DNA of 18,208 nucleotides from a virus (IMGVR_UViG_2879754190_000001), one strand, 5' to 3'. Shown: positions 1-18,208, numbered from the stretch's first letter. A program made the numbers and translations. The notes: generated by a model from the sequence alone, not told the origin.

Positions 1-45
1 GTGATAGTCTTAATACTAGTTTTTAGACTTGTCATTGGAGAACAG

Positions 46-477
46 ATTATTGATGTCTTAGGGCCGGAGAAACGCAGACGGCGTACCACACAGGAAAAGA
101 TCGCAATTGTTCAGCAGAGCTTTGAACCGGGGATGACGGTCTCCCTCGTTGCCCGGCAACATGGTGTAGCAGCCAGCCAGTTATTTCTCTGGCGTAAGCA
201 ATACCAGGAAGGAAGTCTTACTGCTGTGGCCGCCGGAGAACAGGTTGTTCCTGCCTCTGAACTTGCTGCCGCCATGAAGCAGATTAAAGAACTCCAGCGC
301 CTGCTCGGCAAGAAAACGATGAAAAATGAACTCCTCAAAGAAGCCGTTGAATATGGACGGGCAAAAAAGTGGATAGCGCACGCGCCCTTATTGCCAGGGA
401 TGGGGAGTAAGCTTAGTCAGCCGTTGTCTCCGGATGTCGCGTGCGCAGTTGCACGTCATTCTCAGACGAACCGATGA
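46..477 (+). pseudogene. insC: IS2 orfA (InsC-like), defective: expected ATG start is ATT at 46-48, and a 1-nt loss in the G-run at 397-400 removes the normal stop so the frame reads on to 477
   Basis: Translation [91 protein letters not shown]...; A6G slippery heptamer at 363-369; orfB lies in the +1 rather than the -1 frame relative to orfA. Confidence 0.8.
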
Positions 478-1270
478 CTGGATGGATGGCCGCCGCAGTC
501 GTCACACTGATGATACGGATGTGCTTCTCCGTATACACCATGTTATCGGAGAGCTGCCCACGTATGGTTATCGTCGGGTATGGGCGCTGCTTCGCAGACA
601 GGCAGAACTTGATGGTATGCCTGCGATCAATGCCAAACGTGTTTACCGGCTCATGCGCCAGAATGCGCTGTTGCTTGAGCGAAAACCTGCTGTACCGCCA
701 TCGAAACGGGCACATACAGGCAGAGTGGCCGTGAAAGAAAGCAATCAGCATGGTGCTCTGACGGGTTCGAGTTCTGCTGTGATAACGGAGAGACTGCGTG
801 TCACGTTCGCGCTGGACTGCTGTGATCGTGAGGCACTGCACTGGGCGGTGACTACCGGCGGCTTCAACAGTGAAACAGTACAGGACGTCATGCTGGGAGC
901 GGTGGAACGCCGCTTCGGCAACGATCTTCCGTCGTCTCCAGTGGAGTGGCTGACGGATAATGGTTCATGCTACCGGGCTAATGAAACACGCCAGTTCGCC
1001 CGGATGTTGGGACTTGAACCGAAGAACACGGCGGTGCGGAGTCCGGAGAGTAACGGAATAGCAGAGAGCTTCGTGAAAACGATAAAGCGTGACTACATCA
1101 GTATCATGCCCAAACCAGACGGGTTAACGGCAGCAAAGAACCTTGCAGAGGCGTTCGAGCATTATAACGAATGGCATCCGCATAGTGCGCTGGGTTATCG
1201 CTCGCCACGGGAATATCTGCGGCAGCGGGCTTGTAATGGGTTAAGTGATAACAGATGTCTGGAAATATAG
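434..1270 (+). pseudogene. insD: IS2 orfB (InsD-like transposase catalytic part) with an internal out-of-frame patch at about 748-793
   Basis: 278-aa ORF matching InsD except residues [14 protein letters not shown]; the expected [14 protein letters not shown] (first Asp of the DDE motif) is readable in a different frame of the same nucleotides, implying a 1-nt and a 2-nt deletion flanking the patch. Confidence 0.8.
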
Positions 1271-1326
1271 GGGCAAATCCAGTATAAGCCATTATCAAAC
1301 CCACCCGTAGATAGGCTTTGTAATGG

Positions 1327-1637
1327 CTACTTCTTCAGAAATGATTCGATGAATTCACGTCGAGGATGACGATAGTTCAGAATATCTTCTGGCATCCTCA
1401 TAAAGCGGTTGTTGCCGTCTTTGGCAGTAACAAAACAGCTGTGAACTCCGCAGACATCCGTTTTGATCGTGTCGCTATACTCAAAAAGCAACTGAGCCAT
1501 CTTCTCTTGCCATTCTGGAGGCATAGCCTCCATGAATACTCGCGGCATCACGCAGAACGACGCATGCGTAAGACCAAACCACAGTTGCAGGTCTTTACGA
1601 TATTCTTCATCCATCGTCTTTACCTTTGTTGCAATGA
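1327..1637 (-). pseudogene. C-terminal fragment (about 103 codons) of an unidentified gene, N-terminally truncated by the IS911 insertion
   Basis: Minus-strand ORF 1327-1710 whose first 24 codons are IS911 terminal sequence; the remainder (IIATKVKTMDEEYRKDLQLWFGLTHASF...MPEDILNYRHPRREFIESFLKK) has coding-like composition. I do not recognise the family. Confidence 0.3.
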
Positions 1638-1709
1638 TGAAGTGGCACACTGAATTTGGCCACCTGAACAGAGGTGATATGCTCACCTCAGAACAACACA
1701 GGTGCTCCA

Positions 1710-1904
1710 ATGAAAAAAAGAAATTTTAGCGCAGAGTTTAAACGCGAATCCGCTCAACTGGTTGTTGACCAGAAATACACGGTGGCAGATGCCGCCAAAG
1801 CTATGGATGTTGGCCTTTCCACAATGACAAGATGGGGCAAACAACTGCGTGATGAGCGTCAGGGCAAAACACCAAAAGCCTCCCCATTACCCGGAACAAA
1901 TTGA
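1710..1904 (+). pseudogene. IS911 orfA (OrfA/InsN-like), frameshifted by 1-nt deletions; slippery heptamer reduced from A6G to A5G at 1959-1964
   Basis: [59 protein letters not shown] then premature stop; the remaining OrfA sequence [21 protein letters not shown] is readable in the +1 frame from 1900. Confidence 0.8.
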
Positions 1905-2004
1905 AATCCGTGAGCTCAGGAAAAAGCTACAACGCATTGAAATGGAGAATGAAATATTAAAAAGGCTACCGCGCTCTTGATGTCAGACTCCTGAACAGTT
2001 CTCG

Positions 2005-2394
2005 ATAATCGGGAAACTCAGAGCGCATTATCCTGTGGTCACACTCTGCCATGTGTTCGGGGTTCATCGCAGCAGCTACAGATACTGGAAAAACCGTCCT
2101 GAAAACCAGACGGCAGACGGGCTGTATTACGCAGTCAGGTACTTGAGCTACATGGCATCAGCCACGGTTCGGCCGGAGCAAGAAGCATCGCCACAATGGC
2201 AACCCGGAGAGGCTACCAGATGGGACGCTGGCTTGCTGGCAGGCTCATGAAAGAGCTGGGGCTGGTCAGCTGTCAGCAGCCGACTCACCGGTATAAACGT
2301 GGTGGTCATGAACATGTTGCTATCCCTAACTACCTTGAAAGGCAGTTCGCCGTGACCGAACCAAATCAGGTGTGGTGCGGTGATGTGACCTATA
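2005..2394 (+). pseudogene. IS911 orfB, 5' portion (exon 1 relative to the intron), containing one further frameshift near 2115-2119
   Basis: [33 protein letters not shown] (frame 1) then ...[66 protein letters not shown] (frame 0), ending exactly at the intron 5' junction. Confidence 0.75.
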
Positions 2395-3062
2395 GTGTGC
2401 CCGGAGTTCAGGGCGGGCATGGATGCTTAAATGAACCGCGAGTCTGTCTGGAATATTGAACCGGTAACTCACGATGAGAAACCCAACAATCCCACCGGGT
2501 GTGACGGTGGAGAACCTGAGCGGCAGTGACCTGCGGCATGCCCGCAGGGTGATGTAACCCGCTGACAACGGGGATTGAGGCGAGATCACTAAGCCGAGAT
2601 GATCCTCAAGGTTAAGTACTGAAAGGCTGAAGAACATGAACCCGTTAATCCGCCTCTGTGGGTTGAAAACGTCACCACGGCCTACGTGATCTGACAGGCC
2701 GTGCAGGAGGAACTGGCAGTGATACGTAAGCACTGCCGGTCGAAGGTGTTTTGACATGTATGCGAAACACCGGGGCAGCAGCGTCTATCACACTTGCGTT
2801 GCTGACTTCTGCCAACTTGCGGCAAGCAAGGATAAAGAGTGCGACGGGCAGCCTCCTCAGTATGCCTGAGTCCGGCAGGTAAACCGGGAAGGTCAGCGAC
2901 GGATGTTAAGGGGCATGGCTCCGATGACGCGCTGGCTGGCGGAGCTTCCGTAGTAGTCCGCGATGGGGAAAGCCCATTACATGGCGAAGGGAAGCAGTTT
3001 GAATGTGTTTGCGACGTGAATTAACTGACCTAACGAGGTGAAGACCTTTGATAATCAGCGAA

Positions 3063-4570
3063 ATGCAACGCAAGCTTGCCACATGGGCAGCCACCGATCC
3101 GTCCCTACGGATTCAACGGCTGCTGCGTCTGATAACACAACCAGAATGGCTGGCTGAAGCGGCGCGGATCACGCTTTCATCAAAGGGGGCCCATACCCCC
3201 GGCGTTGATGGCGTGAACAAAACAATGCTACAGGCCAGACTGGCTGTTGAGCTGCAAATCCTCAGGGATGAATTACTCTCAGGCCACTACCAGCCCTTGC
3301 CCGCCAGACGGGTTTACATCCCTAAAAGCAACGGCAAACTGCGACCACTGGGTATCCCCGCGTTGCGGGATCGTATTGTTCAGCGGGCCATGCTGATGGC
3401 GATGGAGCCGATATGGGAGAGTGATTTTCATACGCTCTCATATGGCTTCCGGCCTGAGCGCAGTGTCCACCACGCGATCCGCACGGTGAAATTACAGCTC
3501 ACAGACTGTGGTGAAACCCGGGGACGCTGGGTGATTGAAGGCGACCTGTCCAGTTACTTCGACACCGTACATCATCGACTGCTGATGAAGGCTGTACGCC
3601 GCAGGATCAGTGACGCACGTTTCATGACTCTGCTGTGGAAAACCATCAAGGCGGGACATATCGATGTCGGTCTCTTTCGGGCGGCCAGTGAAGGTGTGCC
3701 ACAGGGCGGTGTTATATCGCCGCTATTATCGAACATCATGCTGAATGAGTTCGATCAATACCTGCATGAGCGCTACCTGAGCGGGAAAGCCAGAAAAGAT
3801 CGGTGGTACTGGAATAACAGTATCCAACGGGGCCGAAGTACGGCGGTCAGAGAAACTGGCAGTGGAAACCCGCGGTGGCGTACTGCCGCTATGCCGATGA
3901 TTTTGTCCTCATCGTCAAAGGCACCAAAGCACAGGCGGAAGCCATCAGGGAGGAGTGTCGGGGTGTGCTCGAAGGCAGTCTGAAACTCAGGCTGAACATG
4001 GATAAGACTAAAATCACCCATGTTAATGACGGCTTTATCTTTCTGGGGCACAGGATCATTCGCAAACGCAGTCGTTATGGCGAGATGCGAGTGGTCTCAA
4101 CGATCCCGCAGGAGAAAGCCAGAAACTTCGCCGCATCGCTGACAGCACTGTTATCAGGCAACTACAGTGAAAGCAAAGTCGATATGGCTGAACAACTCAA
4201 CCGAAAACTGAAAGGCTGGGCCATGTTCTATCAGTTCGTTGATTTTAAGGCCAAAGTCTTCAGTTATATCGACCGTGTCGTGTTCTGGAAGCTGGCTCAC
4301 TGGCTGGCCCGCAAATACCGTACAGGTATCGCTTCCCTGATGAGGTGGTGGTGTAAATCACCGAAACCGGGTCAGAGCAAAACGTGGGTTTTATTTGGTA
4401 AAACCAATCACGGCAAGCTCAGCGGCGAAATACTGTACCGGTTGGTGGGGCAAGGCAAGAAGCTGTTCCGCTGGCGGCTACCCGAAGGTAATCCCTATCT
4501 GAGGACGGAGACCAGAACACGTATACATCGCGCTTTACAGAAGTGGCAATGGCGTTCGCCAGGCATTTAA
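3063..4570 (+). pseudogene. Group II intron-encoded reverse transcriptase/maturase, split by a frameshift near 3850-3860; no HNH endonuclease motif seen
   Basis: RT motifs GVDGV, RRVYIPKSNGKLRPLGIPALRDRIVQ, SYGFRPERS, GDLSSYFDTV and GVPQGGVISPLLSNIMLNEFD in one frame; YADDFVL, LNMDKTKITHV, GFIFLGHRI and the maturase-like C-terminus in the -1 frame. Confidence 0.8.
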
Positions 4571-4575
4571 ATGGA

Positions 4576-4609
4576 GAGCCGGATGCGCTGAAAGGTGCAC
4601 GTCCGGTTC
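4576..4609 (+). other. Group II intron catalytic domain V hairpin (part of the ribozyme RNA)
   Basis: GAGCCGGATGCGCT-GAAA-GGTGCACGTCCGGTTC: 34 nt, AGC catalytic triad near the base, GAAA tetraloop, close to the domain V consensus; sits about 50 nt from the intron 3' end. Confidence 0.75.
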
Positions 4610-4631
4610 GGGGAGGAGAGCAGGGAAATAG

Positions 4632-5138
<507 letters not shown>

Positions 5139-5146
5139 CCACTTCA

Positions 5147-6115
5147 CCTTTCTTTCCGAACCTTGTTGATCACCTTCTGGTTAAGCATCACACGGCTGAT
5201 GGCGTTGAAGATGGCATTTCAATCTGCTACTTCAAGCCATACTCGCAAGGCCGTGCTCGCTGGCAGGGTGACACAATCCACGGCGTGTGGTTTGACGAAG
5301 AGCCACCATACAGCATTTATGGCGAAGGTCTTACCCGTACCAACAAATACGGGCAATTCTCAATTCTGACGTTTACCCCGCTGATGGGGATGTCTGACGT
5401 TGTTACCAAGTTCCTGAAGAACCCCAGCAAGTCGCAGAAAGTGGTCAACATGACCATCTATGACGCTGAGCACTATACCGACGAGCAGAAAGAGCAAATC
5501 ATCGCATCATATCCCGAGCATGAGAGAGAGGCGCGTGCTCGCGGTATTCCTACGATGGGTAGTGGTCGAATCTTCCAGATACCGGAAGAGACGATTAAGT
5601 GTCAGCCGTTCGAGTGTCCTGATCACTTCTACGTAATTGGCGGGATGGATTTCGGATGGGATCACCCACAGGCGCAAGTTCAGCTTTGGTGGGATAAGGA
5701 GGCAGACACAATCTACGTTTCACGCGTGTGGAAGGCGAAAGAAAAAACAGCCGTTCAGGCGTGGGGAGCCGTTAAATCATGGGCGCATAAAGTGCCAACC
5801 GCATGGCCTCATGATGGAAACCAGCACGAGAAGGGCGGCGGTGAGCAGCTCAAAGGGCAGTATGCAGACGCTGGATTTATGATGTTGCAGGAGCATGCGA
5901 CATGGCCTGATGGCGGTAACGCTGTTGAGCCAGGCATCACTGAATTGCGCGACATGATGCTCGATGGTCGCTTCAAAGTATTCAATACCTGTGAGCCATT
6001 CTTTGAGGAGTTCCGCCTCTATCACCGTGATGAAAACGGGAAAATCGTCAAGCTTAACGACGACGTGCTATCCGCCGTTCGCTATGCATACATGATGCGC
6101 CGCTTCGCAAAATGA
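5147..6115 (+). pseudogene. P22-like terminase large subunit (gene 2 equivalent), C-terminal about 322 codons only; the N-terminal ATPase region is missing, replaced by IS911
   Basis: Open frame begins exactly at the IS911 right end; the terminase assignment rests mainly on its position immediately upstream of the portal gene (gene order 2-1-8-5), with VIGGMDFGWDHP consistent with a nuclease-type acidic motif. P22 gp2 is about 499 aa. Confidence 0.75.
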
Positions 6116-6186
6116 TGCGCGACATCAAAAAACCAAAAGAGAAAAAGATACCAGCCCCAATCAGGCCCATCGCACGGAGAACTTAA

Positions 6187-8352
6187 ATGGCCGACGAAAA
6201 CAGACTCAATTCCATTCTGTGTAAGTTTGACGCAGACTGGATGGCGAGCGATGAAGCCAGAACCGAGGCGACAAATGACCTGTATTTTAGCCGAGTGTCG
6301 CAATGGGATGACTGGCTATCAAACTACACTACCCTGCAATATCGCGGACAATTCGATGTTGTTCGCCCGGAGGTCAGGAAACTGGTCGCAGAGATGCGCC
6401 GGAACCCTGTCGACGTTCTCTTCCGACCCAAAGACGGCGCTAATCCTGATGCAGCCGATGTATTGATGGGGATGTATCGTACTGATATGCGCCATAACAC
6501 GGCAAAGATTGCCGTTAACGTTGGCGTTCGTGAGCAGATAGAGTCAGGCGTTGGTGCATGGCGTCTGGTCACGCAGTACGAAGACAACGATCCAACAAGC
6601 AACAATCAGGTAATCCGACGCCTGCCAATCCATGAAGCCTGCTCACACGTCATATGGGACGCCAACAGCAAGCAGATGGATAAGAGCGACGCTAAGCACT
6701 GCACGGTGATTAACGCCTTGTCGCGCAATGGCTGGAAAGAGTTCGCAGAGGATTACGGTATTGACCCGGATACCCTGCCATCTTTCCAGAATCCTAACGA
6801 TACATGGCTATTCCCGTGGGTGTCGAATGATGTCGTCTACGTCGCTGAGTATTACGAGGTAGAAGAGGAGAAGGAGAAGGTCTTCATCTACCGCGACCCG
6901 CTGACAGGTGAGCCGGTCAGCTATTACCAGCAGGATATCAAAGACGTCATCGACGACCTGGCTAATCGTGGATTCATTAAGGTAGCAGAGCGCAAGGTGA
7001 AGCGTCGGCGTGTGTATAAGTCGATCATCACCTGTACGCAGATACTGAAAGACCGCGAGAAGATAGCCGGAGAGCATATTCCAATCGTTCCAGTGTATGG
7101 CGAATGGTCATTCGCTGGTGACAAGGAGTGCTACGAGGGTGTGGTAAGGCTGACGAAAGACGGTCAACGCCTTCGTAACATGATTATGTCGTTCAACGCC
7201 GATATTGTTGCTCGGTCACCGAAGAAGAAACCGACCTTCTTCCCTGAGCAAATCGAAGGCTACGAATACATGTACGGCGGAAATGATGACTATCCGTACT
7301 ATCTGCAGAACAGGACTGATGAAAACGGTAACGACCTGCCGATTGGTCCAATCTCCTACATGGAAAACCCTGAAGTGCCGCAAGCCAACGCTTACATGCT
7401 TGAGGCTGCCACCAACGCAGTGAAAGAAGTGGCTAGTCTTGGCGTGGATGCGCAGGCGGCAAATGGTCAGGTCGCTTTTGATACCGTCAATCAACTGAAC
7501 ATGCGGGCAGACCTTGAGACATACGTGTTTCAGGATAACCTGGCTACCGCAATGCGACGTGATGGCGAGATTTATGCCTCAATGGTCAACGATATTTATG
7601 ACGTTCCTCGTCATGTAACGCTGACACTTGAAGATGGAAGCGAGAAAGACGTTCAACTCTATGCGCAAGTTGTCGATTACCAGTCCGGCAATGTGGTCAC
7701 ACTCAACGACATTCGCGGTCGATATGAGTGCTATACAGACGTTGGGCCATCCTTCCAGAGTATGAAGGAACAGAACCGCGCAGAGATTCAGGAGTTGCTC
7801 ACCAAGGTTCCGCAAGGTACTCCAGAGTTCCAGATGCTGATGCTGCAATACTTCACGCTGCTTGACGGTAAAGGCGTCGAGATGATGCGAGAGTACGCGA
7901 ACAAGCAACTGGTGATGATGGGGCTGAAGAAACCAGAAACACCTGAAGAGATGGAGATGGTGCAGCAGGCACAACAACAGCCGCAGCAGCCATCAGCAGA
8001 GCAAATTCAGGCGCAGGGTATCCTTCTGCAAGGTCAGGCTGAATTGCTCAAGGCAGAGAACCAACAGGCGCAGATTCAGGTTGAAGCTGCCAAGGTTGAA
8101 GCCCAAAACCAACTCAACGCCGCGAAGATTGCAGAAATATTCAACAATATGGACCTCGACAAGCAGGCAGAACTGCGTGAGTACCTCAGGCTCGTAGGTC
8201 AATTCCAGCAACAGCGCAGCAAAGATGCTCGTGCTAACGCTGAGCTGCTTCTTAAAGATGCAGACCAGACTCATTCACAACGCATGGATTTCGCGAATCT
8301 TATGCGTCAAGTTCAAATCCCCTCCGGCGGAGTAGCCGAGACACCTCAATAA
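6187..8352 (+). CDS. Portal protein, P22 gp1 family (721 aa)
   Basis: Near-colinear similarity to the P22 portal as I recall it (MADENRL...[12 protein letters not shown]...[12 protein letters not shown]...[23 protein letters not shown]...[15 protein letters not shown]...NAELLLK...VAETPQ); GGAG RBS 8 nt upstream. Confidence 0.95.
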
Positions 8353-8365
8353 GAGAGAGTTAATC

Positions 8366-9277
8366 ATGGACCAAACCACCGACATTCAGGCTTCTGAAGA
8401 ATTAACCCTGCCCGGCAATCATGCAGCGGCATCTGCTGATGGCTTAGTTGTCGATAATGCCAACGACAGCGCAGGTCAGGAAGAAGGCTTTGAGATTGTC
8501 CGGAAAGACGATGAGAAACCAAAACAAGACCCGGCAACTAATGCTGAATTTGCCCGTCGCCGCATCGAACGCAAACGCCAGCGTGAGCTTGAGCAGCAGA
8601 TGGAAGCGGTTAAGCGTGGAGAGTTGCCGGAGCACCTGCGGGTGAACCCTGAGTTACCAAAACAACCAGACCCTAACGATTATCTTTCCGAAGATGCACT
8701 GGCTAAGTACGACTATGACCAGAGCCGCGCACTGGCTGCCTTCCAGCAGGCAAACAGTGAATGGCAGATCAAGGCTATGGACGCACGAAGCCAGGCTGTC
8801 GCCGAGCAGGGTCGCAAAACTCAGGAGTTCACCCAGCAATCAGCGCAATACGTCGAGGCGGCCCGTAAGCACTACGAGGCAGCGGAAAAGCTCAATATCC
8901 CTGACTATCAGGAGAAAGAGGATGCATTCATGCAACTGGTGCCGCCAGCAGTCGGTGCCGACATCATGCGCCTCTTCCCGGAGAAATCCGCCGCTCTCAT
9001 GTATCACCTTGGTGCTAATCCTGAGAAAACACGCCAGTTGCTGGCGATGGACGGGCAATCCGCGCTGATTGAACTCACTCGACTGTCAGAACGTTTAACT
9101 CTCAAGCCTCGAGCCAAGCCTGTTTCAGAAGCCCCGTTACCTGATGAACCCATTCAGGGACATGCTGTTGCTGCAAATATCTCTGCGATTGAAAAGCAGA
9201 TGGAGGCGGCAGCAAACAAAGGGGATGTAGAGACGTACCGCAAGCTCAAGGCGCAACTGAATAAAGGAATTCGATAA
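8366..9277 (+). CDS. Scaffolding protein, P22 gp8-like (303 aa)
   Basis: Position between portal and coat; same length as P22 gp8 (303 aa); charged, helix-rich composition; stop overlaps the coat start (TAATG). Confidence 0.8.
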
Positions 9278-10572
9278 TGGCATTAAATGAAGGTCAACTG
9301 GTCACGTATGCTCTGGATGAAATCATCGGAACCGTCCAGAACCTGACGCCAATGGCGTCAAAAGTGACAAAATACCCCCCTCCGGCAGAATCCATGCAGC
9401 GTTCAAGCAACACCGTGTGGATGCCTGTTGAGCAGGAAGCGCCAACCCAGACTGGCTGGGATTTAACTGGCAACGCAACCGGGATTCTGGAACTCTCCGT
9501 GAAGTGCAACATGGGCGATCCGGATAACGATTTCTTCGAGCTTCGTGCAGATGACCTGCGTGATGAGCGTTCTTACCGTCGCCGCATCCAGGCATCCGCC
9601 AAAAAACTGGCGAATAACATTGAGTCAGCGATTGCCAAACAGGCAACTGAAATGGGCTCGCTTGTTGTTCACGATACCCGCGCAATTGGTCCATCGACTG
9701 GCCTGCCTGGCTGGGATTTTGTGTCTGATGCAGAGCGACTGATGTTCTCCCGTGAGCTAAACCGCGACATGGGCATCAGTTACTTCCTGAACCCTGACGA
9801 TTACCGCAAAGCAGGCCGCAACCTGGTAGATGGTGACATCTTCGGGCGCGTTCCTGAAGAAGCATATCGAAACGGTACTATTCAGCGTCAGATTGCTGGC
9901 TTTGATGAAATTCTTCGCTCACCGAAACTTCCGGCAGTTACCAAGTCAACCGCGACTGGTGTAACTGTTTCTGGTGCGCAGAAGTTTAAGCCGCAGGCAT
10001 ACACCCTTGATACCGATGGTAACAAAGAGAACGTCGACAACCGTGTTGCAACGGTGACCGTATCCTCCACCACCGGATTTAAGCGCGGCGACAAAATCAG
10101 CTTCATTGGTGTGAAGTTCCTGTCTCAGATGGCGAAGAATGTGCTGACTGATGACGCGACTTTCTCAATCACCCGTGTGATCGATGGTACTCACATCGAA
10201 ATCACGCCGAAGCCGATTGCGCTGGATGACGCGTCACTGACAAAAGAAGAGAAGGCTTACGCTAACGTAAACACCTCTCTTGCTGATACCACTCCGGTAA
10301 ACGTTCTGAACGTGGCAACAACCACCGCTAACGTGTTCTGGGCTGATGACTCAATCCGCCTGCTGTCTCAGCCGATCCCGGTAACCCATGAACTGTTTGC
10401 TGGCATGAAAACGTCTTCCTTCAGCATTCCAGGTATTGGTGTTAACGGCATCTTCGCAACGCAGGGTGATATCAACACTCTGTCTGGTAAGTGCCGTATT
10501 GCTGTGTGGTATTCAGCATGTGCTGTACGACCAGAGGCAATTGGTGTTGGTCTGCCTAACCAGACCGCGTGA
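9277..10572 (+). CDS. Major capsid (coat) protein, P22 gp5-like (431 aa)
   Basis: Position and length (P22 gp5 is 430 aa); translationally coupled to the scaffold gene; followed by a strong intrinsic terminator. Confidence 0.85.
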
Positions 10573-10580
10573 TAACCAGA

Positions 10581-10604
10581 GGGAGCTTCGGCTCCCGTTT
10601 TTAT
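10581..10604 (+). terminator. Rho-independent terminator/attenuator after the coat gene
   Basis: GGGAGC-TTCG-GCTCCC perfect 6-bp GC-rich stem with a UUCG tetraloop, followed by GTTTTTAT; sits 9 nt after the coat stop codon. Confidence 0.6.
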
Positions 10605-10616
10605 CTGGAGACAAGC

Positions 10617-10841
10617 ATGACACACATGATCTTTCGTCATGGCGACATGAAGAAGTGGAAAGGCGTTGGCTACGACTTTGAAATCGTGAAAGCCGAAGAG
10701 CTTCAGGAATATCTGGATGCTGGCTGGTTTTCACATCCTGATGACCTTTTGAAGGATGTTGCAGAGCCAGAAGAAAAACAGCGTAAAAAGCCTGGTCGAA
10801 AACCTAAGGCGGCAGCAGATGAACCTGACAACGAAGGGTGA
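10617..10841 (+). CDS. Small hypothetical protein (74 aa) between coat and gp4
   Basis: ATG with GGAG 7 nt upstream, just after the terminator; [74 protein letters not shown]; overlaps the gp4 start by 23 nt in another frame. Confidence 0.35.
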
Positions 10842-11319
10842 TTTAGTTCTTGCGGCATTACGTAAGCTCGGTGTTGCATCAAATGCCACGTTAACCGATG
10901 TCGAACCGCAGTCTATGGAAGACGGCGTCAACGACCTTGAAATGATGATGGCTGAATGGCTTGGCGGTGATGCGTCACCTGGTATCAACGTTGGCTACAT
11001 TTTTGCTGATGCAGATGTTGCTCCGGATCCGGGCGATGAGCACGGTTTATCAAATAACGCTATCAATGCCGTCATTTTCAACCTTGCCTGCCGAATTGCT
11101 CCAGATTATGCGCTGGAAGCGTCTGCAAAACTTATAACCACTGCCAGATACGGGAAAGAGCGACTCGTCAAACTGTCTGCAATGGACAGGGCAAAAGCAG
11201 CTAAATGTAAGTCCGGTTATCCAAACCGTATGCCTGTTGGTAGTGGTAACCAGTTGGCGAAGTGGAATGGTTGGAATTACTTCCACCGAAAGGAACCTTG
11301 CGATAACGGGAGCGAATAA
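10819..11319 (+). CDS. Head completion / tail accessory protein, P22 gp4-like (166 aa)
   Basis: [33 protein letters not shown]...[14 protein letters not shown]...; length matches P22 gp4 (166 aa) when started at ATG 10819 rather than the upstream ATG at 10756. Confidence 0.75.
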
Positions 11320-12737
11320 TGCCTATTCAGCAACTTCCGCTTATGAAAGGTGTCGGCAAAGACTTCCGAAACGCCGACTATATCGACTATCTGCCAGTGA
11401 ATATGCTGGCTACACCCAAAGAAATCCTGAACAGCAGCGGATATCTTCGCTCATTCCCGGGCATTGCCAAACGTTCTGACGTGAACGGTGTATCTCGCGG
11501 CGTCGAGTACAACATGGCGCAGAATGCTGTTTATCGCGTGTGTGGCGGCAAGCTGTACAAAGGAGAAAGTGAAGTCGGTGATGTTGCCGGAAGTGGTCGT
11601 GTATCAATGGCGCATGGTCGGACATCACAGGCGGTAGGCGTTAATGGTCAACTGGTCGAGTATCGCTATGATGGCACGGTCAAAACCGTCTCAAACTGGC
11701 CTACAGACAGTGGATTCACTCAGTATGAGTTAGGTTCAGTTCGCGACATTACGCGCTTACGTGGGCGTTATGCGTGGTCAAAAGACGGAACTGATTCATG
11801 GTTTATCACTGACCTTGAAGACGAATCTCATCCTGACCGTTACAGCGCACAATATCGTGCCGAGTCTCAGCCTGACGGCATCATCGGTATCGGGACATGG
11901 CGAGACTTCATCGTCTGCTTTGGTTCATCGACTATTGAATATTTCTCCCTGACTGGCGCAACCACCGTTGGTGCCGCTTTGTATGTTGCACAACCATCGC
12001 TGATGGTGCAGAAAGGCATTGCCGGAACTTACTGCAAAACGCCATTCGCTGATTCGTATGCGTTTATCAGCAATCCGGCAACGGGTGCGCCGTCTGTGTA
12101 TATCATCGACTCCGGTCAGGTGTCACCAATTGCCAGCGCGAGCATTGAGAAAATCCTCCGCTCCTACACTGCTGATGAACTGGCTGATGGTGTGATGGAA
12201 TCGCTGCGATTTGATGCTCATGAGTTGCTGATTATCCACCTTCCGCGTCACGTCCTCGTGTACGACGCATCTTCAATCGCCAATGGCCCACAATGGTGTG
12301 TGCTGAAAACAGGTCTGTATGACGATGTGTACCGCGCTATCGACTTCGTTTACGAAGGCAATCAGATAACGTGCGGCGATAAGCTGGAATCTGTTACCGG
12401 GAAACTGCAATTCGATATCAGCAGCCAGTACGACAAGCAACAGGAACACCTGCTGTTTACTCCACTCTTCAAAGCGGATAACGCCAGAGTGTTCGACCTT
12501 GAGGTTGAATCGTCAACTGGCGTTGCGCAGTACGCCGACCGCCTTTTTCTCTCTGCAACCACTGACTGCATCAATTACGGGCGTGAGCAGATGATTGAGC
12601 AGAATGAACCGTTCGTTTACGACAAGCGTGTTTTGTGGAAGCGAGTAGGGCGCATCAGGAAAAATGTCGGCTTCAAATTGCGCGTTATCACGAAGTCACC
12701 TGTCACTCTGTCTGGCGCTCAGATAAGGATTGAGTAA
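11319..12737 (+). CDS. Tail accessory protein, P22 gp10-like (472 aa)
   Basis: Position after gp4; same length as P22 gp10 (472 aa); TAATG start/stop overlaps on both sides. Confidence 0.75.
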
Positions 12738-13534
12738 TGGCTGATTCGAATCTCAATGTGCCGGTAATCATCCAAGCTACGCGGCTCGATACATCAGTCC
12801 TTCCACGCAATATCTTCTCGCAGTCGTATCTGCTTTACGTTATCGCACAGGGCACTGATGTTGGTAACGTGGCTAACAAAGCCAACGAGGCCGGACAGGG
12901 CGCTTATGATGCACAGGTCAGGAACGATGAGCAGGATGTGATTCTCGCTGACCATGAGCAGCGAATTTCTGCTGCGGAAGCAACGCTTGTTAATCATGAG
13001 GAGCGAATCAGACAGGCAGAATCAACTCTTCAGGACCATGAAACACGAATAGCTCAGAATGAAAGCGATATTTCGTCGCTTGACACAAGAGTTCAGTCGC
13101 TGGAGTCGCAGGTTTCAGACCATGAAACGCGCATCGATGCTCTGGAGTATGCAACCACACGCAAGAAGTCAGAGGTTGTTTACTCTGGTGTATCTGTAAC
13201 CATCCCGACAGCGCCGACCAACCTTGTTAGCCTGCTGAAAACGCTCACACCGTCATCCGGCTCGTTGGCACCATTCTTCGACACCGTTAACAACAAGATG
13301 GTTGTGTTCAACGAGAACAAAACCCTGCTCTTCAAGTTGTCGATTGTCGGCACGTGGCCCAGCGGAACCGCCAACAGGTCAATGCAGCTAACCTTTTCCG
13401 GCTCTGTTCCTGACACACTGGTCAGCAGTCGTAATGCGGCGACAACAACCGACAACATCCTGTTAGCTACGTTCTTCAGCGTGGATAAAGACGGCTTTCT
13501 TGCCACAACCATCAAGATAATCGCGGAGCAGTGA
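12737..13534 (+). CDS. Tail needle (P22 gp26 family) with a conserved N-terminal domain, coiled-coil repeats and a divergent C-terminal domain (265 aa)
   Basis: N-terminus [43 protein letters not shown]...[20 protein letters not shown] matches the gp26 N-terminus as I recall it; central DHE.RI heptad-type repeats; the C-terminal 120 aa do not resemble P22 gp26. Confidence 0.8.
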
Positions 13535-13989
13535 TGATTACATTCAAACCAACGCGAAACATCGACCTGATAGAAGCAGTCGGAAATCACCCTGACATTA
13601 TCGCCGGGAGCAACAACGGTGATGGATACGACTACAAACCTGAATGCCGTTACTTTGAGGTGAACGTGCACGGTCAGTTTGGCGGCATTGTTTACTATCA
13701 GGAGATTCAGCCGCTGACATTAGATTGCCACGCCATGTACCTGCCAGAGATTCGCGGCTTCAGCAAGGAAATTGGGCTGGCGTTCTGGCGATACATTCTG
13801 ACTAACACCACCGTTCAGTGCGTAACATCGTTCGCTGCACGCAAATTCCGACACGGTCAGATGTACTGCGCAATGATTGGCCTTAAGCGTGTAGGAACCA
13901 TCAAGAAATACTTCAAAGGCGTGGATGACGTGACTTTTTACAGCGCCACACGCGAAGAACTAATCGACTTCCTGAATCACGGGAGATAG
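13534..13989 (+). CDS. Hypothetical protein in the P22 gp14 position (151 aa), Cys/His-containing
   Basis: ORF coupled to the tail needle stop (TGATG); [25 protein letters not shown]...KPECRYFEVNVHGQFGG...LDCHAMYLPEIRGF...; assignment by position only (P22 gp14 is 176 aa). Confidence 0.5.
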   Translation: MITFKPTRNIDLIEAVGNHPDIIAGSNNGDGYDYKPECRYFEVNVHGQFGGIVYYQEIQPLTLDCHAMYLPEIRGFSKEIGLAFWRYILTNTTVQCVTSFAARKFRHGQMYCAMIGLKRVGTIKKYFKGVDDVTFYSATREELIDFLNHGR

Positions 13990-13991
13990 CC

Positions 13992-14684
13992 ATGTTATAT
14001 GCATTTAAGCTGGGCAGAAAACTGCGCGGCGAGGAACCTTATTGCCCTGAAAAAGGCGGGAAAGGTGGCAGTTCTGATAAAAGCGCAAAGTATGCAGCAG
14101 AAGCCCAGAAGTATGCTGCAGACCTGCAAAATCAGCAGTGGCAGACGATCATGAAAAACCTTGCTCCGTTCACGCCTCTTGCGGAGCAGTATGTTAACCA
14201 GCTTCAGAACCTTTCCAGTTTAGAAGGTCAGGGGCAGGCACTTAATCAGTATTACAACTCTAAGCAGTATAAAGACCTTGCAGGGCAGGCGCGTTACCAG
14301 AGTCTTGCTGCTGCGGAGGCGACGGGTGGACTTGGTTCGACAGCCACAAGCAATCAACTGGCTACGATCGCGCCGACACTCGGTCAGTCTTGGTTATCAA
14401 ATCAGATGAGCAATTACAACAATCTGGCAAACGTTGGGCTTGGTGCGCTGCAAGGTCAGGCAAACGCCGGGCAGACGTACGCCAACAACATGAGCAGCAT
14501 TGCACAGCAAAGCGCAGCTCTTGCCGCTGCTAATGCCAATAAACCATCAAGTCTTCAGACTGCAATTAGCGGTGGCACGTCTGGTGCGATTGCCGGTGCA
14601 GGTCTTGCCAGCCTTTTGGGAACATCAACGCCTTGGGGCGCTGGTATTGGTGCTGGTATCGGATTGCTTGGCTCGTTGTTTTAA
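13992..14684 (+). CDS. Ejection (internal virion) protein, P22 gp7-like (230 aa)
   Basis: Position and length (P22 gp7 is 229 aa); Q/A/N-rich low-complexity body with a glycine-rich hydrophobic C-terminus (GAIAGAGLASLLG...GAGIGAGIGLLGSLF). Confidence 0.6.
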   Translation: MLYAFKLGRKLRGEEPYCPEKGGKGGSSDKSAKYAAEAQKYAADLQNQQWQTIMKNLAPFTPLAEQYVNQLQNLSSLEGQGQALNQYYNSKQYKDLAGQARYQSLAAAEATGGLGSTATSNQLATIAPTLGQSWLSNQMSNYNNLANVGLGALQGQANAGQTYANNMSSIAQQSAALAAANANKPSSLQTAISGGTSGAIAGAGLASLLGTSTPWGAGIGAGIGLLGSLF

Positions 14685-14693
14685 GGGGGAATC

Positions 14694-16025
14694 ATGGCTA
14701 CTTGGCAAGGAACAAACGGCGGATTGTTGGCTGGTATCGGCGGCGTCAACTCAAACGCTCCGAGCGTAAATGACATCGGCAATACGCTTCAGCTTATCAG
14801 GCAGAACAATGATATTGAGCGTTCAGGCGCTAACAATGTTGGGCTGACTGCTTTGCAAGGTCTTTCAGGTATTGCGGGTGTTTTTCAGCAGGAAAAGCAG
14901 GCTCAGCGGCAGAAAGAATTTCAGCAGGCGTACGCTAATGCTTATGCGTCTGGTGATCGCGGTGCTTTGCGTCAGTTGGCTACTCAATATCCAGACCAGA
15001 TTGAATCCGTTCGTAAAGGCATGGGATTCATTGATGAAGAGCAGCGTAATTCTATCGGCACCTTAGCGGCTGGCGCACGCCTTGCGTCATCGTCTCCAGA
15101 AGCAATGCAATCATGGCTGCAAAACAACGCCGGTGAGTTAGCTCGTGTTGGCGTTAATCCTCATGACGTCGCTCAGATGTACCAACAGAACCCGCGGCAG
15201 TTCGGCGAATTTGTCGATCACCTGGGGATGAACAGTCTCGGGCCCGAAAAATACTTTGACCTACAGGATAAAATGCAGGGTCGCCAGGTTACCATGCGCG
15301 GTCAGGATCTGGATTCGCAAACCGCCGCTCGGAATCAGGCAATCACAATGCGCGGACAAGATATCCAGGCGAATTTAGGTCAGCAGCGCATTAATCTGGA
15401 CGCAGAAACAAACCGCATTAACAACGAAAATAAGCGCCTTGACCGGATGCTATCAGCAGAAACTAACGACCTGAAGCGCCAGGAAATACAGAGCCGCATA
15501 GCAGCCAACAACCAGCAGTTGCAGCAGAAGCAGCAAGCGCTAAATGATGGCTACAAAGACGGCATCAACACCCTCACAACCAGCATGTTCACTCTGAACG
15601 ATATCGTTAGTTCTCCTTCACTTAAGAGCATTACAGGCTTACGTGGAGTAATCCCCAACGTTCCAGGCTCACAGGCTGCAGACACTCAGGCACGACTTGA
15701 TACCTTTAAATCACAAGCATACCTGACAGCGGTTCAGGCCATGCGAGGCATGGGCGCACTTTCTGATGCCGAGGGCAAAAAGCTCGACCAGGCTGTTGGT
15801 TCGCTGCAGAACTCGCAGAGCGAGGAGTCCTTTCGTCGCAACGCTGGCGTCATCCTGAACACGCTCAACCAGAAGCGTAATGAGGCGGTTGGTAAGTACG
15901 TTCAGCAAAACGGTATCAAGCGAGTGGAAGCGCCTCAGGCTTCTATAGATTACCTGAAGCAGCACCCCGAGCTGTCAATCGACTTCATTAATCGCTACGG
16001 ATATCTTCCATCTTTGGGGCAGTAA
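14694..16025 (+). CDS. Ejection protein, P22 gp20-like (443 aa)
   Basis: Position in the conserved 7-20-16 order; Q/N-rich; GGGGG RBS upstream. Confidence 0.6.
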   Translation: MATWQGTNGGLLAGIGGVNSNAPSVNDIGNTLQLIRQNNDIERSGANNVGLTALQGLSGIAGVFQQEKQAQRQKEFQQAYANAYASGDRGALRQLATQYPDQIESVRKGMGFIDEEQRNSIGTLAAGARLASSSPEAMQSWLQNNAGELARVGVNPHDVAQMYQQNPRQFGEFVDHLGMNSLGPEKYFDLQDKMQGRQVTMRGQDLDSQTAARNQAITMRGQDIQANLGQQRINLDAETNRINNENKRLDRMLSAETNDLKRQEIQSRIAANNQQLQQKQQALNDGYKDGINTLTTSMFTLNDIVSSPSLKSITGLRGVIPNVPGSQAADTQARLDTFKSQAYLTAVQAMRGMGALSDAEGKKLDQAVGSLQNSQSEESFRRNAGVILNTLNQKRNEAVGKYVQQNGIKRVEAPQASIDYLKQHPELSIDFINRYGYLPSLGQ

Positions 16026-17756
16026 ATGGCTAATTACCGTGATTTGTTAGAGCAGGCTGGCGCACGTTACGGTGTGCCAGAAGGGTTGATGACTGCACTG
16101 GGTGCCAAGGAGTCTTCTTACAACCCTGCCGCAGTAAGCTCCGCCGGGGCTGTAGGATTGACTCAGGTCATGCCTGGGACATGGCGTGATATGGGTTATA
16201 CCGATGAGCAAATGCAAAACCCCGAATATCAGGCTGACGCTGGCGCGCGCTATCTGGCAAAGATGTACCAGCAGTTTGGTAACTGGCGTGACTCTCTTCA
16301 GGCTTATCACGACGGTCCCGGCAACGTTATGAAGGCAAAGCGTGGTGAATATACGCCAGGACCTGAAGGCCGCGGTTACGTTGATGATCGCTTTGCTCAA
16401 TGGGCTGGTGACCCGGTGACAGACTCAACAGTCGAACAGCGCGCCACCTCTGCAAAGGTACATCCTCAGCAAGACCCTAACAACCCGTTTGCACAACTGG
16501 AAGTACAGTCATCCGAACAAGTATCGGCATCAGGTGTGCAGTCAGACCCAAATAATCCATTTGCTCAGATTGAGCAGCAGGCAGCCAGTCAGCAGCCACC
16601 TCAACCCGTAAGTTCTGTCGCACCGAAACCTGTTCAGCAACAAACAGTTAATCAGGCCAATAATGCACCAACACGGGAAGAACCATCATTGATGCAACAA
16701 GCTGGCGATTGGCTCACTGGTGGTCAAAGTGCAGGGCAAATTGCAGAACAGGCTGGTCGTGGTCTGGTAAACATACCATTTGACGTATTGCAGGGTGGCG
16801 CAAGTCTGATTAATGCAATCAGTCAGGGGCTTGGGGGGCCAAAAGTATTGGATGATGTTTATCGTCCAGTAGACAGACCGACAGACCCCTACGCGCAAGC
16901 TGGAGAGTCAATAGGCGGTTATCTTGTTCCTGGAGCAGGTGTAGCTGGAAACATGGTCATTGGTTCTCTCGCTGACGCGGCGAATCAACGGGGTGATTTT
17001 GCCGAAAATGCCGCTATTAATGCCGGACTTAGCATTGCTACGCATGGCCTGATAAATGGCGTTACCCGTGGTGTTCGTGGTGCATCAAATATAATTAGTG
17101 GCAATAAAACATCTGCACAGAGAGCGACCACTGCGCCAACAGAAACATCACCATTCTCCGGTGATGCCGCTGCAGCAACAAATCCTGCGGTTCATGCCGC
17201 AGAGGCAAGAGTAGCACAAGGTGTACCAATGACGCCTGCGACGAAGAACCCAGAGGAAGTCGTTCGCACAGTAGCAGCACAAAAAAGGCCAAATCTCGCT
17301 TCATCGCTTGATGAACTAGATATCAATCCTCAGGCTGAAGTTCTGGAGTCTGCTGAAAGGCTTAATGTTGATTCATTACTCCCTTCACACTTTTCCGGGA
17401 ACGAGCAATACAAGGCAGTTGAGCAAGCAATCAAGTCCCGTGCGGGTTCTGCTCTACAGGTGCAGGAAAATGAAGCAATCAGGCAGCTAGCACAGGGCGC
17501 GGGTGAGATAATTGATCGCGTTTCCGGTGCAAAAGATGCTCTTGGTATGAGCGACAAGTTTATTGATACGGTCAATGGAAGAATGTCTGCGCTGATGAAA
17601 CGAAGCGACCAGCTTTATCGCAATGTTGAAAAGGCGATGCCTGCAGGTGCAAAAATTGATGCGCCATCAACAAGGTCAATGCTCAAACAGGTGGCAGAAG
17701 ATCTTGGCGGGATGAAAAACCTTGACCCTATTGAAAAGAGAGTTGAGGTAGCCTGA
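16026..17756 (+). CDS. Ejection protein, P22 gp16-position, carrying an N-terminal lytic transglycosylase (SLT) domain (576 aa)
   Basis: N-terminal ...[34 protein letters not shown]...[14 protein letters not shown]...AYHDGPGNV has the family-1 lytic transglycosylase motif pattern (ES / GLMQ-type / AYN-like); followed by a long A/Q/G-rich region. Confidence 0.7.
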
Positions 17757-17807
17757 GTTTAACGGACACTCCTTCCTGAAATAGAATGGCATCAGAAGGA
17801 GCTAATA

Positions 17808-17827
17808 ATGAGCAGAAAAACCCAACG
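17808..17827 (+). pseudogene. First 6-7 codons (MSRKTQR) of a gene truncated by the IS629 insertion
   Basis: AAGGAG RBS at 17796-17801, ATG at 17808, reading frame runs straight into the IS629 left end at 17828. Confidence 0.3.
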
Positions 17828-18208
17828 TGAACCGCCCCGGGAATCCTGGAGACTAAACTTCCTGAGAAAGAGGTAAACAGGATGACTAAAAATACTCGTT
17901 TTTCCCCCGAAGTCCGTCAACGGGCAGTCCGTATGGTTCTGGAAAGTCAGGGCGAATATGACTCACAATGGGCGACAATTTGTTCCATTGCCCCAAAGAT
18001 TGGCTGTACGCCGGAGACTCTGCGTGTCTGGGGTCGCCAGCATGAGCGGGATACCGGGGGCGGTGATGGAGGGCTCACCACCGCTGAACGTCAGCGTCTG
18101 AAAGAGCTGGAGCGTGAAAATCGTGAACTGCGCCGCAGTAACGATATCCTTCGCCAGGCTTCCGCTTATTTTGCGAAGGCGGAGTTCGACCGCCTCTGGA
18201 AAAAATGA
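17828..18208 (+). mobile_element. IS629 (IS3 family), left end plus complete orfA; the rest of the element lies beyond the window
   Basis: Left terminus TGAACCGCCCCGGGAATCCTGGAGACTAAACTTCCTGAGAAAGAGGTAAACAGG followed by an orfA matching IS629 OrfA from memory. Confidence 0.9.
17882..18208 (+). CDS. IS629 OrfA (transposase N-terminal DNA-binding protein, 108 aa)
   Basis: [108 protein letters not shown]; helix-turn-helix plus leucine-zipper-like C-terminus. Confidence 0.9.

Follow-up and report, generated by a model that had tools for sequence, protein, structure and literature searches.

The closest described relatives of the locus analysed here are the phages APC_JM3.2, IME10 and Dewey and E. 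coli prophages, among them that of F1005, which share 96-97% nucleotide identity over positions 5144-17743 of the window, the whole 18,208-nucleotide stretch of DNA under study. These relatives have the gene order of the window, terL, portal, scaffold, coat, orf69-like, gp4, gp10, needle, gp14, gp7, gp20 and gp16. They also possess a small terminase, a full 499-aa large terminase (TerL), and lysis and regulatory genes, and the window lacks all of these. The gp16-type protein is full length in APC_JM3.2 (911 aa) and Dewey (875 aa) and truncated in the window, while the annotations of IME10 and F1005 give no complete gp16 coding sequence. A tailspike is annotated downstream in APC_JM3.2 and F1005 and none is present in the window, which, unlike these relatives, also bears derived replacements at conserved residues. 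Phage Sf6 has the same type of tail needle knob as the window. P22 is only about 78% identical at the nucleotide level, with protein identities of 92-93% for gp10 and gp14, 73-85% for the head proteins and gp7, and 60% for gp4, and gp20 and gp16 are only about 35% identical. The P22 lengths cited in an earlier note on this DNA agree with the P22 annotation (portal 725, scaffold 303, coat 430, gp4 166 and gp10 472 aa), and these five ORFs are nearly identical in length in the window. Compared with P22, the gp16-type protein of the window has an extra N-terminal SLT domain and is truncated.

Results

The window is 100% identical to the chromosome of Shigella flexneri 2a FC906 (CP037996.1), described in PMC6836418. 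Positions 5147-17743 derive from a P22/Sf6-like Lederbergvirus, whose virion-assembly module they comprise; the sequence is 96-97% identical to that of live coliphages and has the colinear genes 2-1-8-5-4-10-26-14-7-20-16 and matching protein families (PF16510, PF09306, PF11651, PF11650, PF11134, PF16532, PF11039, PF25688, PF16928 and PF26808). The IS elements reported on either side of the module are indeed present, and every lineage sampled, among them 2457T, 8401 and 2002017, has the same two IS-phage junctions, which points to a single ancestral truncated remnant. The remnant is a phage block without essential functions, vertically inherited at one chromosomal site in the sampled S. flexneri genomes. 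Three exact-protein look-ups show a left flank of type VI secretion (T6SS) genes and a right flank of psiF-phoA-iraP-ddlA, so that no intact prophage is hidden in the flanks, an outcome that the earlier note had considered and that is rejected here. A literature search turned up no description or functional study specific to this remnant; its matches concern other prophages (oac1b, Sf6, epsilon34) or are general remarks on P22 remnants.

Within the module, all on the plus strand, the portal (gp1 homologue, 721 aa, 6187-8352, PF16510), the scaffolding protein (gp8, 303 aa, 8366-9277) and the coat protein (gp5, 431 aa, 9277-10572) are open, and the exact portal protein is listed in 2711 collection blocks. 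A GC-rich hairpin with a T run (10581-10596) lies 3′ of the coat gene, matching the position of the annotated stem-loop after the coat gene of P22. It is followed by a 74-aa ORF at the position of P22 orf69 (10617-10841, phrog_1175), which differs from the 2a lineage by a 6-nt repeat indel, and by the open genes for the tail adaptor gp4 (166 aa, 10819-11319, PF11650) and gp10 (472 aa, 11319-12737, PF11134). The tail needle gene (12737-13534) encodes 265 aa with an Sf6-type knob and matches PF16532 over profile positions 1-152 of 175. Relatives in S. flexneri and E. coli mostly have 282 aa; the shorter protein results from an in-frame deletion of 51 nt between TGCCACAA repeats, with the loss of 17 knob residues (ATNGSTLTIQSNGAAFT). 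The genes for gp14 (DUF2824, 151 aa, 13534-13989) and the ejection proteins gp7 (230 aa, 13992-14684) and gp20 (443 aa, 14694-16025, PF16928) are open, and an identical gp20 protein is also found in intact prophages. The assertion that the structural ORFs are full length thus holds for portal, scaffold, coat, the orf69-like ORF, gp4, gp10, gp14, gp7 and gp20, and fails for the third ejection protein, of which 573 codons remain, and for the needle. Ten ORFs are open in FC906, and the common 2a lineage has all ten together with a full-length needle.

Both ends of the module are truncated. The large-terminase remnant (5147-6186, plus strand, aligned to APC_JM3.2 and F1005) lacks the first 456 nt (152 codons), as expected from the earlier description of a truncated terminase, and matches the Pfam Terminase_6N profile only from position 68. 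One nucleotide is also missing from it near 6108 (A5 to A4), which closes the frame at 6115; this deletion is absent from 16 other genomes with loci spanning the site and from further genomes. At the other end, the gp16-type ejection protein (16026-17743, plus strand) retains its N-terminal SLT domain and 573 phage codons, compared with 797-922 aa in its nearest homologues, and its PHROG match ('DNA transfer protein') covers only profile positions 3-349 of 668. The ORF runs over 16026-17756 (576 aa) and closes inside IS600, which cuts the phage sequence at 17743, so the last ejection protein is not full length as had been stated. The 84-nt left end of IS600 (17744-17827, plus strand, 100% identical to annotated IS600 copies) includes the first codons of IS600 orfA, and it is these, not a phage gene, that had been taken for a gene cut off by IS629. 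An IS629-like IS3-family element lies within IS600 (17828-18208, plus strand, orfA at 17882-18208), with psiF-phoA next in the genome. Careful alignment therefore uncovers frameshifts or truncations in gp16 and terL and, in part, in the needle, the kind of damage that the earlier note had said would count against it.

An inducible P22-like prophage would have complete small and large terminases, a complete gp16, a tailspike, an integrase and an att site; here TerL is truncated and frameshifted, and IS629 followed by psiF-phoA lies downstream, in agreement with the reported lack of a tailspike. No small terminase gene was found in the window or in the 3.8 kb upstream of it, and no small terminase, tailspike or integrase gene within 10 kb in the FC906 lineage. 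In place of a late promoter and antiterminator, the upstream sequence holds IS2, the IS911-like element with its intron, and T6SS genes; in a promoter scan, which is a weak test, sigma-70-like sites are fewer than in shuffled sequence, with none upstream of the portal gene. As the late promoter, the antiterminator, the small and complete large terminases and the tailspike are all lacking, we infer that the module is unable to make or fill particles.

The block to the left of the module begins with IS2 (1-1282, plus strand, 99% identical to annotated E. coli IS2), which starts in the window at the orfA start, its left inverted repeat lying outside, and which shows three indel events (four missing bases) relative to orthologous copies. 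The 3′ remnant of a phage ORF follows on the minus strand (1327-1635, PHROGs match phrog_3527). In the 8401 lineage this ORF is complete (172 aa) and lies directly after Rz within an inverted lambdoid lysis cassette (holin, lysozyme, Rz); in 2457T-type lineages the cassette is present and the ORF is reduced to a 95-aa remnant, and at the locus in the window the cassette itself is missing. The left part of an IS911-like IS3-family element (1637-2394, plus strand) has five one-base deletions relative to orthologous copies. It is interrupted by a group II intron (2395-4659, plus strand; Rfam Intron_gpII at 4574-4659, the only family found by the Rfam scan), and in intron-free copies of the IS position 2394 is joined straight to 4660. 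The ltrA frame of the intron is broken by one-base indels in the FC906 assembly and is annotated in E. coli copies. The right part of the element (4660-5146, plus strand) is 100% identical in other S. flexneri, and its end (...CCACTTCA) meets phage DNA at a junction that all lineages share, whichever way the IS is oriented.

The contrast between intact phage genes and decayed IS and intron genes, which the earlier note had in effect used as a clock, probably does not withstand comparison with sister genomes. The count of at least ten indels in IS2, IS911 and the intron is correct for the record and is confined to the FC906 assembly. About 18 of 20 indels in this block are one-base deletions in the window and are missing from the orthologous IS copies of sister S. 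flexneri genomes, which show no base substitution across 16.5 kb of adjacent unique DNA (3.9 kb of T6SS genes and 12.6 kb of phage module). The FC906 genome is a hybrid assembly of MinION R9 and Ion Torrent reads (PMC6836418). The contrast is very probably an artefact of hybrid assembly in multi-copy repeats, which is strongly suggested as the cause of both the IS indels and the frameshift near 6108.

Other S. flexneri lineages have eroded the module in different ways. In some, terL′, portal, scaffold and the coat N-terminus are deleted and the IS911-like element adjoins the coat gene at 9418 or 9706; gp7 is reduced to 202 aa by an 84-nt deletion in the L014 group and is frameshifted by an additional C in strain 2002017, and terL′ carries an additional C in 2457T. 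The tail and ejection half, gp4 to gp16′, is present in every locus retrieved, a sample biased by the use of those very proteins as queries. Apparent short alleles of gp14 (107 aa, locus L019) and gp20 (432 aa, locus L018) were rejected as start choices of the gene caller and left out of the decay count, as their DNA is identical to the window. In the 8401 lineage (three genomes), a tract of roughly 4.6 kb has been replaced by recombination: about 150 coding SNPs relative to the window (127 synonymous, 23 nonsynonymous) fall at roughly 11.1-15.7 kb, whereas the remaining 8 kb has only 9, so that SNP density differs 29-fold; the IS junctions are identical. Sf6 matches this tract at about 96% identity and E. 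coli prophages at 96-97%, and no donor above 97% identity was found among the phages and E. coli genomes searched.

The earlier note had proposed dN/dS against P22/Sf6-family homologues as a check. That comparison gives omega values of 0.05-0.12 on the pre-Shigella branches, which alone are uninformative because they reflect the functional past of the phage; the comparison that does inform sets branches that precede truncation against those that follow it. The stem branch has 6 nonsynonymous and 15 synonymous substitutions (omega 0.12), and ten functional relatives pooled give an omega of 0.09. Since the shared IS truncations, S. flexneri has accumulated 14 nonsynonymous and 5 synonymous substitutions (omega about 0.84), a ratio compatible with neutrality (p=0.79) as opposed to the phage-like ratio (p=6e-6) and different from that of the stem (Fisher test, p=0.010) and of the recombinant tract (p=3e-7). 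When limited to SNPs in at least two independent genomes the counts are 10 to 2, a second sample adds three further SNPs, all nonsynonymous, and the result holds at 11 to 4 when four doubtful private SNPs of locus L008 are removed. Private variants of L046 and some CP1825xx assemblies were excluded as evidence owing to dense local errors or broken housekeeping genes, and the intact prophages L039 and L043, which have an identical gp20, were rejected as closer outgroups, being no closer at 94-98.5%. Derived changes include L46R and D171E in scaffold, E18G, T34P and T277I in coat and S320I in gp10, and residues L46, D171, E18, T34 and S320 are conserved in the ten relatives and in P22. With no more than 19-22 SNPs to count, individual genes may still be under weak purifying selection (omega about 0.3-0.5). 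Under neutrality 3.8% of substitutions create a stop codon, and with about 10 neutral substitutions the probability that all ORFs stay open is about 0.18-0.35.

Discussion

The locus is very likely what remains of a P22/Sf6-like Lederbergvirus, a cryptic (defective) prophage reduced to the late-operon virion-assembly module, which was recently inactivated and is drifting neutrally. The remnant is well annotated, and on this reading it is an ordinary cryptic prophage that is not being maintained for the host. The truncated module would have become fixed in the S. flexneri ancestor once IS elements had removed both ends: the IS911-like element would have removed all sequence upstream of large-terminase codon 153, and IS600, before itself being struck by IS629, would have cost the phage its tailspike, immunity and integration genes and at least the final third of the gp16-type gene. 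Most ORFs are still open because the truncation is too recent for many mutations to have arisen (about 10 substitutions on the FC906 lineage), which supports the very recent inactivation that the earlier note had put forward as one of two explanations. Since then, substitutions and lineage-specific deletions and frameshifts appear to follow a neutral pattern of relaxed selection and progressive erosion, in which decay would proceed mainly through IS911-mediated adjacent deletion, microhomology deletion and homopolymer slippage, and homologous recombination with related phages would now and then overwrite part of the module.

A reading in which the remnant is not merely inert and acts as a standing recombination partner for Sf6- and P22-like phages infecting S. 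flexneri is unlikely, though not negligible. The exchange of the tail and ejection tract in one lineage after truncation indicates that the remnant could donate or receive alleles of gp10, needle, gp14, gp7 and gp20; if so, it might shape phage host range or rescue defective phages. In a weaker variant, expression of the retained tail and ejection genes, or of the gp16 fragment with its SLT domain, could interfere with superinfection. It is quite improbable that the ORFs are intact mainly through repeated overwriting of decayed segments by infecting or co-resident functional P22-like phages. The 8401 tract, with its unchanged junctions and its similarity to E. coli prophages and Sf6, is the kind of event that such refreshing would produce; yet it is the single exchange among about 30 genomes, its donor was not found above 97% identity, the lineage of the window shows no import and has accumulated derived nonsynonymous changes instead, and recency by itself accounts for the open ORFs.

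Domestication, in which purifying selection keeps the capsid and ejection genes for a benefit to the host, be it protection against superinfection by Sf6-like phages, some function of particles or an enzyme with an SLT domain, is very unlikely, and the host-beneficial role offered as the second explanation in the earlier note is not supported. In its favour, most ORFs have stayed open, each of the exact proteins is found on at least 1000 contigs, thousands of collection blocks contain them, and both internal deletions (51 nt in the needle, 84 nt in gp7) are in frame; however, the wide occurrence is explained by clonal descent, and two in-frame deletions out of two have a chance probability of about 0.11. 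Against domestication stand the rise of omega after truncation, the replacements at residues conserved up to P22, the loss of head genes in several lineages, the frameshifts in gp7 and terL′ and the absence of a promoter signal in the weak scan. A domesticated machine such as a gene transfer agent (GTA) or tailocin would have a complete structural set under purifying selection, whereas here terminase and tailspike are missing, gp16 is truncated, omega is near 1 and head genes have been lost. That the prophage is intact and inducible, its truncation an assembly or window-edge effect, has only the open ORFs in its favour and can be dismissed, as the same junctions occur in 2457T (AE014073) and 8401 (CP000266), both Sanger-finished, and in many independent assemblies, the flanks are chromosomal, and small terminase, tailspike and integrase are absent within 10 kb.

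For the cryptic prophage favoured here, the value of the locus is mostly cautionary, and no new biological question is opened. For a young clone, the open ORFs of a truncated prophage do not argue for domestication, and the decay clock that adjoining IS elements seem to provide can arise from errors of assembly in hybrid long-read genomes. Compact and well sampled, the locus illustrates early prophage erosion in an IS-rich pathogen through IS-driven loss of adjacent DNA, microhomology deletions, amino-acid changes that drift neutrally and a single tract replaced by recombination, and it is usable for marker rescue with phage Sf6.

The DLP12, Rac, Qin and e14 elements of E. coli K-12 are IS-eroded cryptic prophages that are fixed in the clone and, like the remnant in the window, still able to recombine with related phages. 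They are grounded fragments bounded or cut by IS elements, as is the remnant in the window, which differs from them in having no recognised host-beneficial gene. A small P22 remnant with an Sf6-type needle gene has been reported from more than 100 E. coli genomes (PMC3741392). Compared with this remnant and with the K-12 prophages, the window retains a larger contiguous structural block of 12.6 kb.

Genome of origin and content of the module

The entire 18,208-nt window is identical to CP037996.1 (positions 3815-22022 of locus L028), the chromosome of the Shigella flexneri 2a clinical isolate FC906 (PMC6836418). Exact copies of its proteins are found on at least 1000 contigs each under database names such as 'putative coat protein [Shigella flexneri]', and the 576-aa truncated gp16-type product is a RefSeq 'MULTISPECIES [Shigella]' protein. 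The remnant is already annotated across thousands of Shigella genomes. AE014073, CP000266 and CP001383, which we take to be S. flexneri 2457T, 8401 and 2002017, respectively, also carry the locus.

From 5144 to 17743, the sequence matches the virion-assembly region of the live Lederbergvirus coliphages APC_JM3.2, IME10 and Dewey and of E. coli prophages at 96-97% identity and, judged by gene order and sequence, the module belongs to the P22-like virion-module family. Portal (721 aa), scaffold (303 aa), coat (431 aa), gp4 (166 aa), gp10 (472 aa), gp14 (151 aa), gp7 (230 aa) and gp20 (443 aa) are open and match the expected Pfam families, and the 74-aa ORF at the orf69 position is also open. The earlier note had called the structural ORFs full length by comparison with P22 lengths; these lengths agree with the P22 annotation and the description holds for the proteins just listed, but not for the tail needle or the third ejection-type protein. 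The needle measures 265 aa as a result of an in-frame 51-nt deletion between TGCCACAA repeats, which removes 17 Sf6-type knob residues and is found on 343 contigs, against 282 aa in most S. flexneri and E. coli relatives. The third ejection-type ORF (16026-17756) spans 576 aa, compared with 797-922 aa for homologues in the nearest relatives, and matches the PHROG 'DNA transfer protein' profile over only half its length. In the references this gene runs on from GAAAAGAGAGT directly into CTTTCGGGC, while the window from 17744 instead reads TGAGGTAGCCTGAGTTTAACGG, which matches annotated IS600 copies at their left end with 100% identity. What had been described as a gene cut off by IS629 is no phage gene but the beginning of IS600 orfA, IS629 being inserted in IS600 at 17828. 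The terminase was correctly read as truncated, as the large-terminase remnant terL' lacks its first 456 nt and in the FC906 record also shows an A5 run at ~6108 shortened by 1 nt.

For the prophages of E. coli F1005 (L002, 18942-20660) and EC581 (L034, 12541-14307), PGAP calls the gp16-type gene 'incomplete; missing C-terminus', with an endpoint exactly where IS600 cuts the Shigella copy (window 17743). The DNA was read for F1005, where the ORF continues to 2736 nt, and the truncated 576-aa RefSeq protein appears to have served as the reference for false pseudogene calls in E. coli prophages. An identical 443-aa gp20 occurs in two apparently complete prophages beside focA (L039 and L043), one of which has a wholly different, Sf6-type head module, illustrating module shuffling around a conserved ejection gene.

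Common descent and recombination

The junction between the IS911-like element and terL (CCACTTCA joined to CCTTTCTTTCC) does not vary between lineages, whichever way round the IS911-like element lies, and neither do the gp16/IS600/IS629 junctions. Because both IS-phage junctions are the same throughout, all copies descend from a single, already truncated remnant. We consider it very probable that the module is a late-operon fossil, recently grounded and transcriptionally orphaned, which would since have drifted neutrally while being nibbled away piecemeal by IS-mediated and microhomology deletions.

A different account of the open frames is that recombination with related phages has refreshed the module. 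The 8401 lineage (L022, L024, L026) differs from the window by ~150 coding SNPs (127 synonymous, 23 nonsynonymous; about 3-4.5% divergence) over ~11.1-15.7 kb (11100-15720), from the end of gp4 through gp20, and by 9 differences in the remaining 8 kb, a 29-fold lower density; the remnant is otherwise ~0.1% divergent. As this jump in density occurs with IS junctions identical to those of the window, one of the two alleles was imported from another P22-like genome after truncation. No donor was identified among phages and E. coli genomes, because the best identities are just ~96-97% (Sf6 ~96%, E. coli prophages 96-97%). Remnants are known to exchange DNA with live phages, and recombination can act as a secondary route that refreshes parts of the module. 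As the main cause of its intactness it is improbable, since the FC906 lineage itself has no imported tract of the 8401 kind.

Selection after truncation

The truncations are common to all copies and the differences within S. flexneri therefore postdate inactivation. With the recombinant tract left out, these comprise 14 nonsynonymous, 5 synonymous and 1 intergenic change, which at a nonsynonymous to synonymous site ratio of 3.33 corresponds to an omega (a dN/dS-type ratio) of ~0.84. The 14:5 count fits neutrality (binomial p=0.79) and does not fit the ratio of functional relatives (p=6e-6). Restricting the count to SNPs in at least two independent genomes, a guard against sequencing errors that mimic neutrality, leaves 10 nonsynonymous and 2 synonymous SNPs (p=2.5e-5 against the phage-like ratio), and all three further SNPs in a second sample are nonsynonymous. 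On the stem, i.e., for substitutions common to all S. flexneri copies and absent in ten functional relatives, the count is 6 nonsynonymous to 15 synonymous and omega is 0.12, whereas private substitutions of the functional relatives give ~0.09. The contrast of these values with ~0.84 within the species indicates that constraint persisted almost up to the S. flexneri radiation and has since been lost. Of the two explanations offered in the earlier note, very recent inactivation is thus borne out, and selection for a host-beneficial role finds no counterpart in the within-species ratio. Domestication of the module for host benefit, for which the open frames had been the argument, is more improbable still than refreshing.

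Seven amino acid changes are derived on the FC906 lineage, five of them at positions where the ten relatives and P22 all have the same residue (scaffold L46R and D171E, coat E18G and T34P, gp10 S320I), the other two being coat T277I and gp16 A90S; 'full length' is therefore not equivalent to 'intact'. Open frames need no special explanation under neutral drift. Stop codons arise from 3.8% of random substitutions in the module ORFs, and the ~10 neutral substitutions on the FC906 lineage lead to an expectation of 1.0-1.7 ORF-breaking events and a probability of 0.18-0.35 that all ORFs remain open, given an indel to substitution ratio of 0.1-0.2, an assumption based on mutation-accumulation work.

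Flanking DNA and indels in the IS elements

The left flank of the module comprises IS2, a 300-nt phage-ORF remnant and an IS911-like IS3-family element with a group II intron inside (2395-4659), with T6SS genes farther left of IS2 in the genome; psiF, phoA, iraP and ddlA lie to the right of IS629. With these flanks, no small terminase, lysis cassette, tailspike or integrase is present nearby in the FC906 lineage, neither beyond IS2 nor beyond IS629 where the earlier note had suggested looking, and a simple intact prophage hidden by the limits of the window is excluded.

In 8401, 2457T and other lineages, IS2 and the IS911-like element are still separated by an inverted lambdoid holin-lysozyme-Rz cassette, possibly the upstream portion of the same prophage in inverted form. 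It covers 2216-7362 in L022 (8401 lineage) and 4974-7724 in the compared locus L023, encodes a PF04971 holin, DUF1327, lysozyme, Rz and ORFs of unknown function, is bracketed by inverted IS911-like copies in 2457T, and is reduced in FC906 to the 300-nt ORF remnant (1327-1635). An 18-nt segment, TTACCTTTGTTGCAATGA (1620-1637), directly adjoins the IS911-like element on its left side in FC906 and is missing from three 2a-lineage loci (L021, L025, L029). The intron within the IS911-like element at this locus is restricted to FC906 among the genomes sampled, with its ltrA frame broken by probable assembly indels. Intron copies sit elsewhere in other S. flexneri, e.g., between gp16'/IS629 and psiF in L008 and L038, and the intron thus appears to be mobile within the species.

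The earlier count of at least ten indels in IS2, IS911 and the intron holds for the record itself, in which IS2, the IS911-like element, the intron and IS629 show ~20 indels relative to other copies, but probably not as a sign of decay. In about 18 of the ~20, the window lacks one base, usually within a short homopolymer, and these deletions exceed mismatches three- to five-fold. The one-base deletions are absent from the orthologous IS2 and IS911-like copies at the same locus in the 2a lineage (L021, L029), while in the same comparison 3.9 kb of neighbouring T6SS DNA shows 100% identity and the 12.6-kb phage stretch lacks any base substitution. Such a distribution is incompatible with a genomic mutational clock and can arise when multi-copy repeats are incompletely polished in a hybrid nanopore and Ion Torrent assembly; for FC906, Unicycler and Pilon were applied to MinION R9 1D and Ion Torrent PGM data (PMC6836418). 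For these reasons, the one-base deletions at 393-5105, and with them the contrast between decayed IS genes and intact phage genes, are probably an assembly artefact. The 6108 frameshift, absent from 16 of the 16 other genomes covering the site in the first sample and from the second-sample genomes, may be an artefact as well.

Erosion in other lineages

Several S. flexneri strains have lost terL', portal, scaffold and the coat N-terminus, the same IS911-like end joining coat codon 48 at position 9418 in four loci (L014, L016, L018, L019) and position 9706 in L017. The strains without head genes also carry an 84-nt microhomology deletion in gp7, and +C insertions are found in gp7 of 2002017, where the frame is shifted, and in terL' of 2457T.

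The 51-nt needle deletion (13491-13508) is common to FC906 and the L014 group, and FC906 shares three derived SNPs (12277, 14689, 16293) with the 2a lineage, in which the needle is full length. To account for this homoplasy, either the deletion recurred between its 8-nt repeats or the lineages recombined. Just past the IS elements, L014 (635-2620) contains an Acyl_transf_3 gene (390 aa) and an integrase fragment. An IS-flanked oacB element is located upstream of adrA (PMC8973906), and the L014 segment may be this element, which suggests that two islands were joined by IS-mediated rearrangement in this lineage.

Expression and classification of the module

The module is probably not expressed. 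A promoter scan, which is a weak test, was negative, and a GC-rich hairpin with a T run directly follows the coat gene (10581-10596), corresponding in position to the 'RNA stem-loop' that the P22 annotation places behind gene 5. This terminator-like element would halt unantiterminated read-through before the tail genes. Taken together, the analysis corrects the gp16 and needle calls, demonstrates neutrality and offers a probable assembly artefact as the source of the IS contrast. The module fails every test of a functional prophage, lacks the complete structural set under purifying selection expected of a domesticated particle system, and qualifies as a cryptic prophage remnant. Comparable cryptic remnants are the IS-eroded ones of E. 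coli K-12. The module is in this respect also like the small P22 remnants that occur in many E. coli genomes (PMC3741392).
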